From a virus (taxonomy: Duplodnaviria; Heunggongvirae; Uroviricota; Caudoviricetes): a stretch of DNA of 6,239 nt. The stretch is from IMG/VR virus record IMGVR_UViG_2706794664_000014. One strand, written 5' to 3'. The position numbers and the translations under genes were made by a program. Under the pieces are notes generated by a model that made no database searches, had not been told where the DNA came from, and worked only from the letters and a program-made list of their open reading frames with translations. Positions 1 through 6,239 of this stretch are shown here, piece after piece (position 1 is the stretch's first letter; each line of letters begins with the position of its first letter).

Positions 1-664
1 CTGTGTTGTTCTGAGGTGAGCATATCACCTCTGTTCAGGTGGCCAAATTCAGTGTGCCACTTCACTTAGCAGCACCTAAGCAACAATTGACTAACAGATT
101 CGGTAGAGTCTATCTCATAGGTCAACTTCATAAACTCAGAGCTAAGTTACCTTGAAAGATTCTACCAAGAACTACACAGGTGTTATTTAGTCTGACTGTG
201 AAGGGATATTTAACGGGAGAAGAGATACGATATAACCCGAAGGGAGAGTATCATCTTAACAATTATCTTAAGAATAAAAACTGAAAAACTCTTAACAGAT
301 AACCACCTAGAAAGAAGGGAACGATAAGACCAGAGGTAGTGACCTGTTAAACAGGCTGTTTCAAAGTCTCTTAAATAAGTAAGGTCATGTGAACAATCTT
401 ACCATTTTGTCAATGCTTTTGTCTTTGACCTAAATCAATAAAATGTATCGTTTGATATGCTTTTAAACAAAATAGCTAAAAAATCTTTTTTTAGAGGGGC
501 GCTTCGCTTGGGGTCACTATGAATGATTTTTCTCTCGCTAAGAGAGCGCTTACAGAGGTCTTTCAAATCTCAATAGCCAGCCGAGGAACACAGGAAACCG
601 AGGGAAGAAAAACTATTGTGATTACCTTGAACAAGGTCTGTAAAGGTCGTTTAAGAGGTCGGTT

Positions 665-856
665 NNNNNNNNNNNNNNNNNNNNNNNNNNNNNNNNNNNN
701 NNNNNNNNNNNNNNNNNNNNNNNNNNNNNNNNNNNNNNNNNNNNNNNNNNNNNNNNNNNNNNNNNNNNNNNNNNNNNNNNNNNNNNNNNNNNNNNNNNNN
801 NNNNNNNNNNNNNNNNNNNNNNNNNNNNNNNNNNNNNNNNNNNNNNNNNNNNNNNN
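665..856. other. Run of 192 N (unresolved or masked sequence)
   Basis: Directly visible N-run; nothing inside can be annotated. Six-frame ORFs crossing it (poly-X translations) are artefacts. Confidence 1.
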
Positions 857-939
857 TTACTGTCAGAGAGGCGAATGCTTGATAGATACAGCTTTCCGGT
901 TCTGTCAAGCTATTTTTTAATAGATAGCACAAAATGCTA

Positions 940-1016
940 AAGACACCCCTGTACCATAGACTTCTATCTGTCATCTCGTGCAGGGGTTTTGAAGGAGTTT
1001 AACGGGGGTCTGTGTG
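940..1016 (+). repeat. Degenerate or partly deleted copy of the intergenic inverted-arm element (hairpin plus right-arm remnant)
   Basis: 997-1016 gtttaac-gggggtctgtgtg matches the right arm of copy 1 (gtttaac...gaagaggtctgtgtg) with about 21 nt missing. 10-mer ggtctgtgtg is shared between 1007-1016 and 1282-1291. The acccctg motif (945-951) recurs in the spacer of copy 2 (tacccctg, about 2902-2909). 7-bp stem acccctg/caggggt at 945-951 and 981-987. Confidence 0.35.
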
Positions 1017-1175
1017 GTCGTTATCCTTAAGGTCAAGCGTCCATGTACGACCGAACAGTTTAAAGACAACAAGCACTCTGACGAGGACGTAGCGAAGTAG
1101 CAGGCCTGCAATCAGCCCAATACCTCCACCAGTCCATACATCAGGTGACCCCAGCTCAGGAGGGAGATTTACCAT
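999..1175 (-). CDS. Hypothetical small membrane protein (58 aa, one predicted hydrophobic helix)
   Basis: Only open frame in this GC-richer island. Minus-strand ATG at 1175-1173 preceded by AAGGA with a 6-nt spacer. Translation MVNLPPELGSPDVWTGGGIGLIAGLLLRYVLVRVLVVFKLFGRTW... contains a transmembrane-like stretch. The 110-aa form from 1331 would run across the conserved intergenic repeat, so the short form is preferred. Coding status unproven. Confidence 0.3.
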   Translation of the reverse strand: MVNLPPELGSPDVWTGGGIGLIAGLLLRYVLVRVLVVFKLFGRTWTLDLKDNDHTDPR

Positions 1176-1189
1176 TAGTTTTCCTTGTA

Positions 1190-1287
1190 AGACGCTCTCA
1201 ATCGCATTCTGACACAAAAAGTACCTGACCTTATGAGTTGACCTGAAGAGGTCGTTTAACTCGTTACAGGGCGATTGAAGAGGTCTG
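1190..1287 (+). repeat. Intergenic inverted-arm element, copy 1 (left arm 1190-1221, variable centre 1222-1253, right arm 1254-1287)
   Basis: Left arm agacgctctcaatcgcattctgacacaaaaag matches 2831-2862 at 30/32. Right arm gtttaactcgttacagggcgattgaagaggtctg matches 2918-2951 at 31/34. The arms are inverted relative to each other (ctcaatcgc versus gcgattgag; terminal cagac/gtctg). Internal direct repeat gaagaggtc at 1245-1253 and 1277-1285. Confidence 0.7.
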
Positions 1288-1346
1288 TGTGCAATGCAAA
1301 ATATGCGACCAAATACATAGCCACGCCTCATATTTTACTCTCCCCA

Positions 1347-1606
1347 NNNNNNNNNNNNNNNNNNNNNNNNNNNNNNNNNNNNNNNNNNNNNNNNNNNNNN
1401 NNNNNNNNNNNNNNNNNNNNNNNNNNNNNNNNNNNNNNNNNNNNNNNNNNNNNNNNNNNNNNNNNNNNNNNNNNNNNNNNNNNNNNNNNNNNNNNNNNNN
1501 NNNNNNNNNNNNNNNNNNNNNNNNNNNNNNNNNNNNNNNNNNNNNNNNNNNNNNNNNNNNNNNNNNNNNNNNNNNNNNNNNNNNNNNNNNNNNNNNNNNN
1601 NNNNNN
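1347..1606. other. Run of 260 N (unresolved or masked sequence)
   Basis: Directly visible N-run; it hides the 5' part and start codon of the gene ending at 2039. Confidence 1.
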
Positions 1607-1607
1607 G

Positions 1608-2039
1608 AACATTGAAGCGGTCATTCGTAGCATTACGCCACGAGACAGATTTATGCCAGTACGCAAAACAACAAAGAATACTATTAAAAATTATCTGGCT
1701 AACTTTGACAGTTACGAGCAGTTACCAAGCAAGCTTGATGATGTTTTTATTGGGTTCTGTAGAAGTGAAGGCCACCCGAAATACAACAAAAAACTATTTT
1801 ATCTGCTAAAGAATCTTGACGAAATTAACGCATCCACCGTGACAAATCATCTTCAGCGACAGGCAACCAGACTTAGTTACGAATTACCAAGCGATAAATA
1901 TTGCGCTTTGCTTGCTGTGATGTGCGCGAAATTAATTGGCATTGTTGAACATCATATTGCCGTTGGGAATATTGAGCCAATGGAAAACGAGCAACCAGAT
2001 TTCGAGTTTGACCCCTATTTAGTTACAGAGGATTTTTAA
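1608..2039 (+). CDS. Hypothetical protein, 5'-truncated by the N-run (visible C-terminal 143 aa)
   Basis: Open frame from the first resolved codon (1608) to TAA at 2037-2039. Stop is immediately followed by the ATG of the next gene (translational coupling). Start lies in or before the gap; candidate starts TTG 1275 and GTG 1289 sit just after the GAGGTCTG motif but frame continuity across the gap cannot be verified. No recognisable family. Confidence 0.55.
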   Translation, partial: NIEAVIRSITPRDRFMPVRKTTKNTIKNYLANFDSYEQLPSKLDDVFIGFCRSEGHPKYNKKLFYLLKNLDEINASTVTNHLQRQATRLSYELPSDKYCALLAVMCAKLIGIVEHHIAVGNIEPMENEQPDFEFDPYLVTEDF

Positions 2040-2318
2040 ATGAATAAACACACATTAACCAGAGTTACAAAGACAGCCTTTGATGAACTGAACCGAATCA
2101 AAAACATTACAGGTCTGCCACACTCAGCAGTGATGAAGCTTGCAATTAACCGTGATATTAACGAACAGGATTTGCTTAATAGTCGCTTAGAGGCTGCAAG
2201 ACACCATATCAGGATTAAGCAAGATGACCTTGATAGTCTGAAATCCTTAAATGCTTTTGGACTGGATTTAGCAAGGTTACTAAGTATCAAAATTCACAAA
2301 CTGTCTCAGGAGGTCTGA
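2040..2318 (+). CDS. Small DNA-binding-like protein, possible ribbon-helix-helix (Arc/MetJ/CopG-type) regulator, 92 aa
   Basis: ATG 2040 directly after the upstream stop; SD AGAGGA at 2027-2032 with 7-nt spacer. N-terminus TLTRVTKTAFDELNRIKNITGLPHSAVMKLAINR fits a beta-strand / helix / turn / helix pattern typical of RHH folds. Pattern-based only, no search run. Confidence 0.5.
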   Translation: MNKHTLTRVTKTAFDELNRIKNITGLPHSAVMKLAINRDINEQDLLNSRLEAARHHIRIKQDDLDSLKSLNAFGLDLARLLSIKIHKLSQEV

Positions 2319-2320
2319 TT

Positions 2321-2593
2321 ATGAAGCAATGGCGAGATGATATTAAACGGTTCTTTGCAACTTACTTCATGATTAATTATGAGACAGGAATGCTTGAATG
2401 GATTGATGGTGGAGAGGTTAAGACAAGAGATGATGCTTACGGTAATCCAATGATTCGTTATGGCACTCGTGATTATTATCTGAAGTATGTCATCTGGTTT
2501 TTGCATCATGAAGTTCAGGCAACTAAAAAGATTATCTTCAGGGATGGTAATAAAAGAAATTGCCACCCAAACAATTTACTCCTGGAGATTTAA
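2321..2593 (+). CDS. HNH-like small protein (90 aa) with a divergent HNH_3-type C-terminal motif
   Basis: SD AGGAGG at 2308-2313, 7-nt spacer, ATG 2321. C-terminus YLKYVIWFLHHEV...KKIIFRDGNKRNCHPNNLLLEI resembles the DGNK-x-NN...NL signature of phage HNH_3 homing endonucleases as I recall it, but the His usually preceding DG is replaced by F-R, so catalytic competence is uncertain. Confidence 0.5.
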   Translation: MKQWRDDIKRFFATYFMINYETGMLEWIDGGEVKTRDDAYGNPMIRYGTRDYYLKYVIWFLHHEVQATKKIIFRDGNKRNCHPNNLLLEI

Positions 2594-2793
2594 TGTTATG
2601 TATTAAATTCGAATATTTGACAGATAAAATGATTAAGCATGTATCAGACCTGCTCATCAAAGAAGGTGGTTTCGGTGATGCTTGCAATCCAAAAGATATC
2701 TTCATTCATGCCACCAGCCCAAACGCAACACTAAAGACAGCAGTTACAGCGGAATGGTTTGAACGAAATAAAGCGGAATTAGGTTATTGGTAG
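2593..2793 (+). CDS. Hypothetical small protein (66 aa)
   Basis: ATG 2593-2595 overlaps the upstream TAA (TAATG coupling); GGAG at 2584-2587 with 5-nt spacer; open to TAG at 2791-2793. The six-frame track starts this ORF at 2560, but the RBS supports 2593. Confidence 0.45.
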   Translation: MLCIKFEYLTDKMIKHVSDLLIKEGGFGDACNPKDIFIHATSPNATLKTAVTAEWFERNKAELGYW

Positions 2794-2830
2794 TCCGAGA
2801 CTTTAAGAGAAATTAGAAAAACAGCTTATC

Positions 2831-2951
2831 AGACGCTCTCAATCGCATTCTAACGCAAAAAACTATCTTATTTTAGGGTGGGTAATACCACTGTACAGGC
2901 TACCCCTGAAAAAGACTGTTTAGCTCGTTACAGAGCGATTGAGGAGGTCTG
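2831..2951 (+). repeat. Intergenic inverted-arm element, copy 2 (left arm 2831-2862, variable centre 2863-2917, right arm 2918-2951)
   Basis: Arms near-identical to copy 1 while the centre differs in sequence and length (55 versus 32 nt). As RNA the arms could pair into a roughly 17-bp imperfect stem (cagacgctctcaatcgc with gcgattgaggaggtctg) plus a further taacg/cgtta extension. Confidence 0.7.
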
Positions 2952-2971
2952 GTAAAAAGGAGATTTTAAAA

Positions 2972-3295
2972 ATGAACGAATATGAATTACAGATTTTCAT
3001 TGATAGCGACACTGCTATGATGGTGCAGGCTTTCGCTGATTCCGGTGTATCAATTGACCTTGATAAATTACTAAAGCTAATGGCTGAAAACTCAGAAGAA
3101 ATTGAAGACTTTATTCAGGAAATTGAAACTGGTGAACCGCGTTTTATGTTTCCTGTTACCGACTCAAACATGAAGCGTCTTATTATCGAAGAAACGAACA
3201 AATACAGCGTTAGCCCTGAAAAATATCTCAAGGCGGCTATAGCAATTTTGTATAGCGATAATATTCTGGTGACGGATTCGAAGGTGGTGCATTAA
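2972..3295 (+). CDS. Hypothetical acidic small protein (107 aa, about 21 Asp/Glu versus about 10 Lys/Arg)
   Basis: ATG 2972 preceded by AAGGAG at 2958-2963 (spacer about 8 nt). The track start TTG 2939 lies inside the repeat arm and is probably not used. Open to TAA at 3293-3295. No recognisable family. Confidence 0.6.
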   Translation: MNEYELQIFIDSDTAMMVQAFADSGVSIDLDKLLKLMAENSEEIEDFIQEIETGEPRFMFPVTDSNMKRLIIEETNKYSVSPEKYLKAAIAILYSDNILVTDSKVVH

Positions 3296-3360
3296 TGGAA
3301 TTGGTGATTATCTGTTTTGTATTGATTGGTATGATTGCAGGTGCATCTATTAAAGTATAA
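3295..3360 (+). CDS. Putative 21-aa hydrophobic peptide (MELVIICFVLIGMIAGASIKV)
   Basis: ATG 3295-3297 overlaps the last base of the upstream TAA; strong SD AAGGTGG at 3281-3287 with 7-nt spacer; single hydrophobic helix-length peptide; TAA at 3358-3360. Below the ORF-track cutoff, found by reading the sequence. Confidence 0.3.
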   Translation: MELVIICFVLIGMIAGASIKV

Positions 3361-3384
3361 ATGTTACCAATCTGTTAAAAGCTG

Positions 3385-3413
3385 TTGACAAACAACCTTG
3401 AGCATGACATAAT
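3385..3413 (+). promoter_or_regulatory. Sigma70-type promoter: -35 TTGACA (3385-3390), 17-bp spacer, extended -10 TGaCATAAT (3405-3413)
   Basis: Consensus -35 hexamer, optimal 17-bp spacing, -10 CATAAT preceded by TGn, AT-rich upstream region. Predicted start around 3420. Confidence 0.5.
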
Positions 3414-3425
3414 TGTATATATGGG

Positions 3426-3450
3426 GGAGAGCAATTCTCTCTTATTTTTT
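3426..3450 (+). promoter_or_regulatory. Promoter-proximal hairpin plus U-tract (GGAGAG-caatt-CTCTCT then tatttttt)
   Basis: 6-bp stem with one G-U pair, 5-nt loop and a T-run, about +6 to +30 from the predicted start. Candidate pause or attenuation element. Confidence 0.3.
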
Positions 3451-3582
3451 CTTTCAATAATCCGATGGATGGATATTCTGAGTTGGAAAGGTGCAATGCT
3501 TTTCGTCCTAGCCTTTCAGGTTGGTCTGAGAGGCTATCTCAAAAAGTCTTTGTTCATTCATTATTGAATCCTTTACAGCTTT

Positions 3583-3610
3583 GCCCTAATCATGAGTTAG
3601 GGCTTTCTTT
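3583..3610 (+). terminator. Candidate intrinsic terminator (stem gccctaa / ttagggc, 7-nt loop, tttcttt)
   Basis: 7-bp perfect stem at 3583-3589 and 3597-3603, followed by a T-rich tract at 3604-3610, about 190 nt downstream of the predicted start. Confidence 0.45.
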
Positions 3611-3680
3611 AAGAGTTTTTAAACAGAGCTTTTAAAGAAAGTTTTCCTGAAACTTCGTTAACGTTATAAGCAAACCTCCA

Positions 3681-3717
3681 AAGCCCTTCACAGATTATGT
3701 TTAGGGCTTTTCTTAAT
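3681..3717 (+). terminator. Second terminator-like hairpin (aagccct ... agggctt then ttcttaat), related to the first
   Basis: Shares ttagggcttt(t)ctt with the 3583-3610 hairpin; 7-bp stem with a 15-nt loop. Also overlaps a long-range inverted repeat, ttaatagagcatc (3712-3724) with ggtgctctattaa (3769-3781). Confidence 0.3.
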
Positions 3718-3810
3718 AGAGCATCTTTAATAAATCGTTAAGTCATCTTCTAAGTGTATTGGCGTTGAAGGTGCTCTATTAAGAAATAACCACACTTAGA
3801 GGAAATTATA

Positions 3811-4521
3811 ATGACAAACGATTTATATATTAACGGTAAAAAGGTTGATAGCTTCGGAGACTGGTCACCACAGGGTGAACATCCGCTACATACTATTCAG
3901 CGTCAAGAGCATGACAAGCGCATTGAGCTTGAGCAAGAGCTAAAGATGTCACCAAAGGTAATTTCCTTTGTGTCTCCTGAGCCTCAAGAAATGCCTGATA
4001 TCTGCAAAACTGAAGCACTATTTGAGCTTGAGCGTGAATATTACCCAGCTTTAAAATCACAGCGTCTTAGACTTGATGTCGCTTACGATGCTGTTAAGAA
4101 CTTCGAAGAAACCTCGAAACCTTCAGAATATGATATTGCTTACGAGATTAAGTCAAACCCGTTTATCTATTATGAAGGAAACTTTAATGATGGTTTTGGT
4201 ACAGCGATTGAAGACGTTCCTAAAGTTCTTCAAAGTATCCCTGAAGGGTTCCGGTTAATTGATGTCAGACAAGCATTAAGGGGTTCTGGTCAATTTATTC
4301 TGATGACTGATAAAACAGATGAAGAGATTCTTCAGTTAGCTGAAGCTAATTTGACTAAGCATTATTCCGGTAAACTGGATAAGTTAAAGCAAAAGCTTAA
4401 AAAAGAACTTGATACTATGAAAGAACTTGTTAGTGAATATGAGTCGCAGAAGAAGATTGCTTTGATGGCTGATATTGAGCAGTTAACGAAGATTTCTCAG
4501 AAGTATAGCAAGGCTGTTTGA
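3811..4521 (+). CDS. Hypothetical protein (236 aa) with a coiled-coil-like, Lys/Glu-rich C-terminus
   Basis: ATG 3811 preceded by GAGGA with 7-nt spacer; long uninterrupted frame to TGA at 4519-4521. No recognisable family. Sits upstream of the tape-measure-like gene, so a tail-module role is possible but unsupported. Confidence 0.7.
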   Translation: MTNDLYINGKKVDSFGDWSPQGEHPLHTIQRQEHDKRIELEQELKMSPKVISFVSPEPQEMPDICKTEALFELEREYYPALKSQRLRLDVAYDAVKNFEETSKPSEYDIAYEIKSNPFIYYEGNFNDGFGTAIEDVPKVLQSIPEGFRLIDVRQALRGSGQFILMTDKTDEEILQLAEANLTKHYSGKLDKLKQKLKKELDTMKELVSEYESQKKIALMADIEQLTKISQKYSKAV

Positions 4522-4543
4522 TTATGAATTAAAGAGGTGATTA

Positions 4544-4753
4544 ATGTTTGAAGAACGTTTAGAGACTATTCGGTCTGTTTGTGAAAACTTAAAGTTACAA
4601 ACTAAGCCAGCCTTAAGAATTAAAAACAAACGTCAAGTTATCACCTCACACAAACCAAAAACACGCAAGATTCCAAAGTGGTGTATTGACCGTATTCCTT
4701 CTGATGCTCAAATCATAGGTGAAACGGAATTACATTATCTTGTCCGACATTAA
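4544..4753 (+). CDS. Hypothetical small basic protein (69 aa)
   Basis: ATG 4544 preceded by AAGAGGTGA; the 12-mer ttaaagaggtga (4529-4540) recurs exactly at 4889-4900 upstream of the next gene. Lys/Arg-rich. TAA at 4751-4753. Confidence 0.55.
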   Translation: MFEERLETIRSVCENLKLQTKPALRIKNKRQVITSHKPKTRKIPKWCIDRIPSDAQIIGETELHYLVRH

Positions 4754-4777
4754 AAAAGAATTGGTTGGGTAAATACG

Positions 4778-4819
4778 GGGAGAGATTATCGAGTGACATC
4801 GGTAGCTCTCCCTTTTTTT
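4778..4819 (+). terminator. Rho-independent terminator (stem gggagag / ctctccc, loop about 21 nt, then ttttttt)
   Basis: 7-bp GC-rich stem at 4778-4784 and 4806-4812 immediately followed by a T7 run at 4813-4819, 25 nt after the stop of the upstream gene. Confidence 0.6.
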
Positions 4820-4909
4820 GTATGTGTGCTACGTGAAATCTGTAAAGCTAATACCCACACTGAAAAATAGAATTTACGTACAACACGCTTAAAGAGGTGA
4901 AAAATATGA

Positions 4910-6187
4910 ATGGCACAATTTAAAGTTGATGATTTTCTGATTGAGTTAAGTTTTAACTCTCAGAAAGTTTTAAAAGGCTTGGAAAAAGCCGAGAAACAAA
5001 CGATGCAGGTAGCATCACGAATTGAGAAGCGATTGAATAAGTCGTTTAGAGTTAATCCTACGCCTTTAAATGATTCTCTCAAACTAATGGAAAGAAATGT
5101 CGATAAAACTGTTTCCAAGATTGAGCAGCGTCTTAAAAACACTAGAGCGTTTAAGATTAAAACTGAAATTGAGGATACTTTAAAGCCACTTAGACAACCA
5201 AGACAGCCACGAATTAGCGGAAGCAGAGCAATCACAGCAGCTTACTCAGCGAATATGAGCAAGCTTCGTGACTTTAATCCTATGCTTGAGAAGTATTTTA
5301 AAAGCCAGTATTACAGCTTAAGCAGTAAATCCAAGACACTTGGAAACGAAACTTTTAATCGTGAGTTAGCAAAGTTAAATCAGTCTCTTCGTGAAACACT
5401 TTCTAAGTTTAACAAGACCACCAGCAAAAATAATCACAGTGAAAATGCTTCAAATAGTCTGGATGTATTAGCTACGAGTGCAATCAAAGCAGGTACAGCC
5501 ATTTATAGTTTTCAGACAGCCTTAGAAGCTTACAGGCGGATTATGGAGGTTGGTCTGAAAAAAGAAGCATCACAACGAGCGGCACAATTCGTTTTAGGTG
5601 ATGAAGGTGCTAAACGAGCTACAGAATTTGTTAAGAATCTTGCTGATAGTAGTGGTGTAGACCAGATTGAAACATTAAGCAGTTTTGCTAAGTTTTCCGC
5701 TGGTGCTGGTGATATGAATGCAGACCAGAAAGAATCCTTATTTTCTAATGTGATTGGTACATCCAGATTAATGGGGCTAAGCACCGATGAAATTAACGGG
5801 ATTTTAAAAGCTTTCGAGCAGATGGCATCTAAAGGAAAGATTCAGGCTGAAGAGCTACGCGGTCAATTAGGTGACAGAATGGCAGGTGCTTTTCAGTTAT
5901 TTGCCAGAAGTCTTGGGATGACTACGGAAGAATTAGACAAGGCCATGAAAGACGGTAAGATTCTTTCTAAAGATGTTCTTCCTAAAGTATCCGCTGAAAT
6001 GGGAAGGATGATTGATAAAGCTGGTGGATGGGAAAAGATTATTAACTCTACTCAGACGCAGTTAGGCCGCTTAAGTAATTCATGGAATAATAATCTGGCC
6101 TTAATGTTCGATGGTTCACAGGAAGGTTTAACAGACTTTACAAGGTCACTGACTAATTTACTTAATTCACTAAATAGCTGCGCTTAA
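4910..6187 (+). CDS. Phage tail tape-measure-like protein, N-terminal portion (425 aa)
   Basis: SD GAGG at 4894-4897, ATG 4910. N-terminus MAQFKVDDFLIELSFNSQKVLKGLEKAEK follows the pattern of the lambda gpH N-terminus as I recall it. Residues about 300-370 (GILKAFEQMASKGKIQAEELRGQLGDRMAGAFQLFARSLGMTTEELDKAMKDGKILSKDVLPKVSAEM) match the conserved tape-measure domain motif from memory. Low-complexity coiled-coil stretch between. Needs HMM confirmation. Confidence 0.7.
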   Translation: MAQFKVDDFLIELSFNSQKVLKGLEKAEKQTMQVASRIEKRLNKSFRVNPTPLNDSLKLMERNVDKTVSKIEQRLKNTRAFKIKTEIEDTLKPLRQPRQPRISGSRAITAAYSANMSKLRDFNPMLEKYFKSQYYSLSSKSKTLGNETFNRELAKLNQSLRETLSKFNKTTSKNNHSENASNSLDVLATSAIKAGTAIYSFQTALEAYRRIMEVGLKKEASQRAAQFVLGDEGAKRATEFVKNLADSSGVDQIETLSSFAKFSAGAGDMNADQKESLFSNVIGTSRLMGLSTDEINGILKAFEQMASKGKIQAEELRGQLGDRMAGAFQLFARSLGMTTEELDKAMKDGKILSKDVLPKVSAEMGRMIDKAGGWEKIINSTQTQLGRLSNSWNNNLALMFDGSQEGLTDFTRSLTNLLNSLNSCA

Positions 6188-6204
6188 TACCGCTACACTT
6201 TTGC

Positions 6205-6235
6205 CAGCCCATGTTTGCCTCCGGGGAATGGGCTG
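6205..6235 (+). other. GC-rich hairpin (cagcccat / atgggctg, 8-bp stem, 15-nt loop) 18 nt after the stop codon
   Basis: Perfect 8-bp inverted repeat at 6205-6212 and 6228-6235. Local GC is about 60% against about 38% for the window. Window ends before any T-tract could be seen. Confidence 0.4.
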
Positions 6236-6239
6236 ACGG

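Follow-up and report, generated by a model that had tools for sequence, protein, structure and literature searches.

IS630 at the truncated end of a tape-measure gene in a small genomic island of the Shigella sonnei lineage

The tape-measure gene and the IS630 end

The window, meaning the whole 6,239-nucleotide (nt) stretch of DNA recorded as the IMG/VR virus locus IMGVR_UViG_2706794664_000014, closes with a tape-measure gene whose homology breaks off after codon 421 and with one end of the insertion sequence (IS) IS630 (Table 1). The open reading frame (ORF) that carries the gene (4910..6187, forward strand) starts with ATG downstream of a ribosome-binding site (AAGAGG, 4892-4897) and encodes 425 amino acids (aa), including an IS-derived end. 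Its tape-measure-like character, proposed in the first-pass annotation of this DNA, was confirmed by matches to Pfam TMP_3 (PF20155; aa 229-396, E = 2.5e-21) and to PHROG 4036, 'tail length tape measure protein'. The stop codon had been placed about 55 residues after the conserved domain, a figure that was found to be approximate: 29 residues separate the end of the Pfam match from the stop, and 70 separate the end of the TIGR02675 match in an intact relative from the equivalent point. TIGR02675 was matched by this relative with E = 1.4e-16, and a tape-measure signature is thus present both in the window protein, as TMP_3, and in the relative.

Table 1. Features of the window and of the related islands, with window coordinates where these apply
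Feature	Position	Strand	Evidence or remark
Terminal 64 nt of IS911, left inverted-repeat end	1..64	-	Comparison with contig L006
236-aa protein	3811-4521	+	Conserved island gene upstream of the tape-measure gene
69-aa protein	4544-4753	+	Conserved island gene upstream of the tape-measure gene
Codons 1-421 of the tape-measure gene	4910..6172	+	BLASTP, Pfam TMP_3 and PHROG 4036 matches
TA target dinucleotide of the IS630 insertion	6171..6172	.	Alignment with two intact E. coli genes and the pCP301 IS630
Terminal 67 nt of IS630, end downstream of its transposase gene	6173..6239	-	95-100% identity to IS630 copies
IS-encoded codons AAT AGC TGC GCT (NSCA) and TAA stop, closing the ORF	6173..6187	+	Reading frame and junction alignment
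3' end of the IS630 transposase gene, ...VSPFPGGKHGLAKV, stop as the reverse complement of 6193-6195	6193..6239	-	Translation
Perfect 8-bp hairpin with 15-nt loop, inside the IS630 transposase coding sequence	6205..6235	.	Fold and shuffle test
Small resolvase-type recombinase	Island start		Seen in 47-1826 and IMG/VR loci L017 and L027
About 2 kb without annotated coding sequence (non-coding repeats)	After the small resolvase
About eight small ORFs, including an HNH nuclease	After the non-coding 2 kb, ahead of the tape-measure gene
Dit_like protein, 256 aa	Downstream of the tape-measure gene		PF21821
Large serine recombinase, 506 aa	After the Dit_like gene	Opposite strand

The 425-aa protein was compared with its intact relatives. 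Against the 688-aa protein of Escherichia coli ECONIH4, BLASTP gave 401/421 identities (95%) in a gap-free alignment of aa 1-421 on aa 1-421. Only positions 250-470 of the 749 in the PHROG 4036 profile were covered by the window protein, whereas the intact 688-aa relative reaches position 748, which shows that the C-terminal third is really absent. The annotated tape-measure genes of two E. coli chromosomes were 2067 nt long each, and the 13 intact homologues, from E. coli and IMG/VR loci, measured 679-725 aa, most of them aligning from end to end with the tape measure (743 aa) of BPS17L1, a Felix O1-like phage. Full-length homologues as short as the 425-aa protein, the outcome that had been taken to mark an ordinary tail gene, were therefore not what was found. 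The window protein does not qualify as a full-length tape measure, since the homology of its gene ends at residue 421 of 688. The strongest hydrophobic segments of the intact protein (approximately aa 477-510 and 541-565), together with its conserved C-terminus, fall in the missing part, and the 425-aa product is for this reason most likely the non-functional product of a pseudogene. In the intact relatives a Dit_like gene follows 174 nt downstream of the tape-measure gene; in the lineage of the window its place is taken by IS630.

The junction was located to the nucleotide. Codon 421 is CTA (6170-6172), and the next nucleotide, 6173, belongs to IS630, which lies in the orientation opposite to that of the tape-measure gene and within which the window stops. 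When 3600-6239 was compared with plasmids by megablast, the sole match was the last ~85 nt (6155-6239), at 95% identity, to a site annotated as IS630 on virulence plasmids of Shigella. In complete E. coli genomes the same segment matched islands of 86-94% identity, with homology ending at 6172-6173. In a four-way alignment, tape-measure homology extended through ...TTAATTCAC TA and IS630 homology began from AATAGCTGCGCTTAATACCGC..., the junction reading ...CAC TA AATAGC with the boundary after TA. The segment 6173-6239 was 95% identical to the IS630 of Shigella flexneri pCP301 and 100% identical to the copy in the Shigella sonnei contig L005. The latter element is complete, at 1153 bp (L005 6349-7501), with the terminus AATAGCTGCGC..., TA on both sides and a far flank that belongs to a different locus. 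Similarly, a full IS630 copy in E. coli PapRG-06-5 (L004) starts with AATAGCTGCGC, ends with GCGCAGCTATT and is flanked by CTA...TAG. The L005 element encodes an intact transposase of 343 aa with HTH and DDE_3 domains; its last 15 codons lie inside the window, where the minus strand of 6193-6237 translates to VSPFPGGKHGLAKV followed by the stop, identical to the C-terminus of the L005 protein. At the point of insertion, the intact ECONIH4 gene reads CACTAGG, which contains CTAG. IS630 reportedly prefers TA within CTAG as its target and duplicates the TA (Tenzen et al. 1990; Tenzen & Ohtsubo 1991).

A stretch of 56 nt of the IS630 end (6170-6225) was also found, at 96-98% identity, at unannotated intergenic sites of the E. 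coli phages ev099, PhiR70_1 and mEp332. These sites may be remnants of solo IS630 ends in phage genomes.

The sharp change in composition described earlier at the end of the ORF was recovered as well. The 52 nt after the stop (6188-6239) have a GC content of 59.6%, against 38.6% for the window without its N positions and 38.4% for the ORF up to 6172. The shift begins at 6173, within the last five codons of the ORF and not at its stop, and is explained by IS630, the whole of which has 52% GC. The perfect 8-bp hairpin was likewise confirmed, CAGCCCAT (6205-6212) pairing with ATGGGCTG (6228-6235); the RNA minimum free energy of the 40-mer that contains it was -16.9 kcal/mol, and a perfect inverted repeat of at least 8 bp arose in 0.7% of 20,000 shuffles of the 52-mer. 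That the hairpin exceeds chance is accounted for by its being conserved IS630 sequence, also found in the IS630 copies of L003, L004 and L005, and since the minus-strand translation is the C-terminus of the transposase, the hairpin is transposase coding sequence near the end of the element. A role as rho-independent terminator, which had been considered, was rejected: in the complete element the stem is followed by ACGGTTTCCATAAAATGG, with no T-run, and the other strand codes for the transposase. A scan with the terminator consensus did not call the hairpin at 6205-6235, and an Rfam search at gathering thresholds, with the window and two intact islands, gave no match.

Origin of the truncation and competing explanations

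These findings make it nearly certain that, in the Shigella sonnei lineage, a small genomic island received a copy of IS630 by transposition into its tape-measure gene. The element would have inserted at TA, within CTAG in the intact relative, after codon 421 of the gene of about 688 codons and in the opposite orientation. Translation would then run 12 nt into the terminal repeat of IS630 and meet the TAA, giving the product of 425 aa. An IS-mediated rearrangement or deletion would have separated the remainder of the gene, and IS911, IS600 and an IS2-like element would have fragmented the island further. IS630, a Tc1/mariner-like member of the IS630 family, was first found in S. sonnei, and the element at the junction resembles the IS630 of this species in its terminus (95-100% identical), its length of 1153 bp, its 343-aa DDE_3 transposase with the stop in the terminal repeat, its TA flanks, the CTAG target in a relative and the host species; it differs from known IS630 in its insertion site alone, codon 421 of an island tape-measure gene. 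Among the possibilities raised in the first-pass annotation, a mobile element interrupting the gene was thus borne out by the IS630 end from 6173 onwards. An intron or a REP-like sequence was ruled out, the insert being an IS630 end with the transposase coding sequence running up to it.

The assignment to S. sonnei follows from several collections. The exact 425-aa sequence is listed among database proteins as 'tape measure domain/protein [Shigella sonnei]', recorded on 82 contigs, and is indexed in 138 assembly blocks, mostly contigs of 2-10 kb; its cluster has 667 members, and among those listed most are fragments from the ends of S. sonnei contigs. Six S. sonnei contigs were 99.8-100% identical to the window, and five of these end inside the IS630. 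Since IS630 is multicopy, short-read assemblies break there, which explains why the window itself ends within the element. The catalogue of IS elements for S. sonnei 53G includes IS630 (PMC7373316). A search of a genome contig collection with the tape-measure protein returned two Escherichia albertii loci only, and a degenerate pattern for both junctions between IS630 and the gene had no hit in that collection, from which this lineage is absent. No complete E. coli genome searched for the junction spans IS630 and the tape-measure gene.

Some observations weigh against the account given above, or against parts of it. The closest relative, strain 47-1826, has CTGG at the insertion point although ECONIH4 has CTAG, so that the sequence present in S. 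sonnei before the insertion is inferred. The window itself holds 67 nt of IS630, and from these alone a solo end and a complete element look the same; a complete IS630 at the junction was seen in L005, a 100%-identical contig of another assembly. L005 was also the sole read-through contig among those inspected, and its continuation beyond the element, into the gene ygjI, could be an error of the assembler in resolving a repeat. Finally, the loss of function of the 425-aa product stands as an inference.

Three other explanations were weighed. The likeliest of them, which we nonetheless hold to be improbable, is a gene split by a simple insertion, in which the 3' part (TA followed by GGTGGTCAATC..., codon 422 onward) would lie directly beyond the IS and precise excision would restore the gene. 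Elements of the IS630 family move by cut-and-paste, and S. sonnei does carry a fragment from the C-terminal end of a closely related tape-measure gene, both of which would suit such a split. On the far side of IS630 in L005, however, lies not codon 422 but a truncated ygjI followed by ebgC and ebgA, 99.8% identical to E. coli, which points to recombination between IS630 copies or to a deletion; judged from this contig, the far side of the element is likely to be the junction of an IS-mediated rearrangement. A junction between element and host, also suggested earlier, is not supported in its simple form, and what remains of the idea is the host gene ygjI beyond the IS in L005. With the 267 aa missing from the C-terminus as query, a search gave one S. 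sonnei entry, P0028, which covers the last ~113 residues, and no S. sonnei-named match to codons 422-554. The contig of P0028 (L011, 1.18 kb) consists of an IS end, tape-measure codons ~555-688, the intergenic region, the first ~131 codons of the Dit-like gene and a second IS end. The first of these ends is of the IS600 type, identical to the sequence adjoining the annotated IS600 ORF1 in pCP301, and the other has 82% identity with a pseudogene annotated as IS3-family in L004; we take this second end to be IS2. The C-terminal fragment therefore starts near codon 555 and is bounded by an IS600 end and not by IS630, contrary to what a simple split would give.

An artefact of assembly, in which a chimeric contig end had joined IS630 reads from elsewhere to a gene that is intact in the real genome, was considered very improbable. 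The window does end in a multicopy repeat, a place prone to assembler error, and it contains runs of N. Against this, the identical junction and product recur in independent S. sonnei assemblies (the 82 contigs, the 138 index blocks and the six loci of 99.8-100% identity), the break falls exactly at TA with a canonical IS630 terminus, and the sole S. sonnei-named match to the missing part of the protein covers its last ~113 residues. The same junction in so many independent assemblies, together with the TA and the canonical terminus, indicates a real, lineage-wide insertion.

Hardly credible is the third explanation, a native and complete short tape-measure-like protein (for example of a satellite with the N-terminal module) whose hairpin is an intrinsic terminator: the good ribosome-binding site, the intact TMP_3 domain and the stable hairpin after the stop agree with it, but IS630 supplies the last four codons, the stop and the hairpin alike, the stem has no T-run after it and was not called by the terminator scan, all 13 of the related islands examined carry genes for 679-725 aa, and the 421 shared residues lie without gaps on the N-terminal part of the 688-aa proteins. 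The earlier suggestion of a truncated gene in a remnant element or satellite holds loosely, insofar as the island is IS-broken in S. sonnei; it fails in the form of a gene that natively consists of the N-terminal module only, the non-Shigella relatives examined all having 679-725 aa.

The surrounding island and its possible relation to Felix O1-like phages

The rest of the window (65-6172) belongs to a conserved island family represented by the loci L001, L002 and L015-L035. The intact element in E. coli is about 12 kb long; strain 47-1826 has it between yciI and tonB, ECONIH4 inside yecE. Its gene order (Table 1) is repeated in more than 12 IMG/VR and E. albertii loci, and the hosts in which islands were seen are E. 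coli, Shigella, Salmonella and E. albertii. Across the family the tape-measure proteins are 43-97% identical, and the recombinases include a second type, about 33% identical to the first. All of the related islands examined keep the 236-aa and 69-aa genes in this order ahead of the tape-measure gene. Database relatives of the 236-aa protein number 3039, from E. coli, Shigella, Salmonella and E. albertii, the listed matches being closely similar; no match to it was found in Pfam, PHROG, NCBIfam, PADLOC or a PDB sequence search, and the name 'transposase' that it bears from PGAP in many NCBI records thus looks unsupported. A single-sequence AlphaFold model of this protein was poor save for a long C-terminal helix (mean pLDDT 48.7). 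The 69-aa protein similarly gave no match in Pfam, PHROG, PADLOC or a PDB sequence search. PADLOC, run on ten island proteins, detected no known defence gene, and on this null result a reading of the island as a defence system was rejected.

Further features of the island were observed in passing. An ORF of 90 aa (2321-2593) matches HNH_3 weakly (E = 7.5e-5, short of the Pfam cut-off), and its slot is occupied in other islands by a different 95-aa HNH protein or by an unrelated 128-aa protein. The N runs of the window at 665-856 (192 nt) and 1347-1606 (260 nt) correspond to L005 805-1044 (240 nt) and 1535-1782 (248 nt), respectively, and differ from these in length; the former holds in L005 two tandem units of ~90 nt, each with a TATATAT-type box, and the latter an AT-rich, promoter-like region with the start of a 185-aa gene. 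A direct repeat of ~100 nt (1184-1287 and 2825-2951), composed of two blocks at 89-91% identity, carries imperfect inverted arms, AGACGCTCTCAATCGC ... GCGATTGA(A/G)GAGGTCT. Its copies stand just upstream of the 185-aa ORF and of a 107-aa ORF, are kept in the E. coli islands L001 and L002 and have no Rfam match; the repeat could be a shared promoter/operator or a leader RNA. Between the 107-aa and 236-aa genes (3585-3720 and 3709-3786) lie two hairpins, each with a T-run after it (GCCCTAA...TTAGGGCTTTCTTT and AGCCCT...AGGGCTTTTCTT), and a 22-nt inverted repeat of 91% complementarity. The hairpins and the inverted repeat at 3585-3786 are probably terminators and an operator that separate two transcription units.

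IS630 is not the only insertion sequence at the island. Homology to the E. coli island begins at window position 65, and in contig L006 the segment 3860-5119, ending opposite window position 64, was 99.4-99.8% identical to elements annotated as 'IS3-like element IS911 family transposase'; a 389-aa transposase with an rve domain stands directly to the left in L006, L007 and L009, which puts the transposase gene just beyond the start of the window. With IS911 at 1-64 and IS630 at 6173-6239, the window is a fragment that runs from one IS to another. The S. sonnei contig L008 carries at the former position a solo remnant of ~40 nt of the IS911 end, without the full IS911. Between the 107-aa and 236-aa genes, at 6266-8648 (about window 3557-3650), it has yet another IS3-family insertion, which encodes a 385-aa transposase. 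In the same contig a 288-aa resolvase with a duplicated catalytic domain adjoins yciI, which places the S. sonnei island at the yciI-tonB locus. On the evidence of these sequences, at least four IS elements, namely IS630, IS911, IS600 and an IS2-like element, have broken up the S. sonnei island.

The intact island genes were also compared with Felix O1-like phages (Ounavirinae; Salmonella phage BPS17L1 and Escherichia phages SUSP2 and EP1), in which gp087 is the tape measure and gp086 is adjacent. The intact island tape-measure protein aligned end to end with a Felix O1-like protein, at 29% identity over the full length. The Dit-like protein of the island was 65-70% identical to the product of the gene that directly follows the tape-measure gene in the phage, and the order of the two genes is the same. 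The islands differ from these phages in the low identity of the tape measure (26-34%), in having no sheath, tube, capsid or terminase genes and, for the window, in the truncation of the tape-measure copy. Beyond the tape-measure and Dit-like genes, the other island ORFs had no match in the Felix O1-like genome. Separately, window 301-367 resembles, at ~80% identity over 69 nt, non-coding sequence close to the end of the BPS17L1 record (L013 44803-44869), the common stretch containing AAGGGAACGATAAGA and a TGTTAAACAGG hairpin. This likeness may reflect a shared regulatory or packaging signal, or chance.

Satellites with a tape measure of their own have been described in Vibrio cholerae, where, as shown in 2026, PLE11 supplies a tape measure, a tail assembly chaperone and a baseplate hub from its own genes and forms chimeric tails on ICP1 parts (PMC12987554). 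The PLE11 proteins are 20% (tape measure), 20% (chaperone) and 41% (baseplate hub) identical to those of ICP1, and according to the same paper (PMC12987554) no tape measure had been reported from other satellites, save for genes predicted in PLE-like elements of Vibrio and in some cf-PICIs. The enterobacterial islands resemble PLE in being compact, at about 12 kb, with a large serine recombinase (506 aa), without capsid or terminase genes and with nearly all genes hypothetical. As in PLE11, a diverged tape measure (29%) is accompanied by a better-conserved baseplate gene (65-70%), both homologous to those of a virulent myovirus. The differences lie in the host and the putative helper phage, in the absence from the island of a recognisable PLE-type chaperone, replication initiator or nuclease and in the broken state of the S. 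sonnei copy, and the likeness is one of gene content and not of direct protein comparison. By analogy with PLE11, the truncated gene can tentatively, with somewhat less than even confidence, be regarded as what is left of one member of an enterobacterial island family, ~12 kb in size, whose members would be PLE-like satellites of virulent Felix O1-like myoviruses, the S. sonnei copy being dead and shattered by IS elements. Such islands would replace the tape measure and the first baseplate protein of the helper with their own and so produce chimeric tails. No published description of a satellite of Felix O1 or Ounavirinae phages, or of this island family, was found in the literature searched.

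Significance

A pseudogene made by IS630 insertion at the end of an S. sonnei contig is ordinary, an instance of well-documented gene decay driven by IS elements. The locus shares with the decay described for Shigella (Hawkey et al. 2020, PMC7373316) an expanded IS that disrupts a gene, contigs bounded by IS elements and several IS within 12 kb, and it differs from the cases treated there (PMC7373316) in that the target is a gene of an accessory mobile element and not a metabolic or virulence gene, with no phenotype implied. The contig end is thereby explained as another IS630-made pseudogene in an IS-rich, decaying genome. It also calls for caution: where a contig ends, a sharp compositional shift together with a hairpin betrays a multicopy insertion sequence, and under its NCBI names, 'tape measure protein' and 'tape measure domain', the 425-aa product cannot be recognised as that of a pseudogene. 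The surrounding island is of more interest than the truncation. Satellites with a tape measure and baseplate proteins of their own were demonstrated only in 2026, for Vibrio PLE11 (PMC12987554), and if the satellite reading is true, a widespread E. coli satellite matched to Felix O1-like phages would be a tractable model of how satellites control tail assembly.

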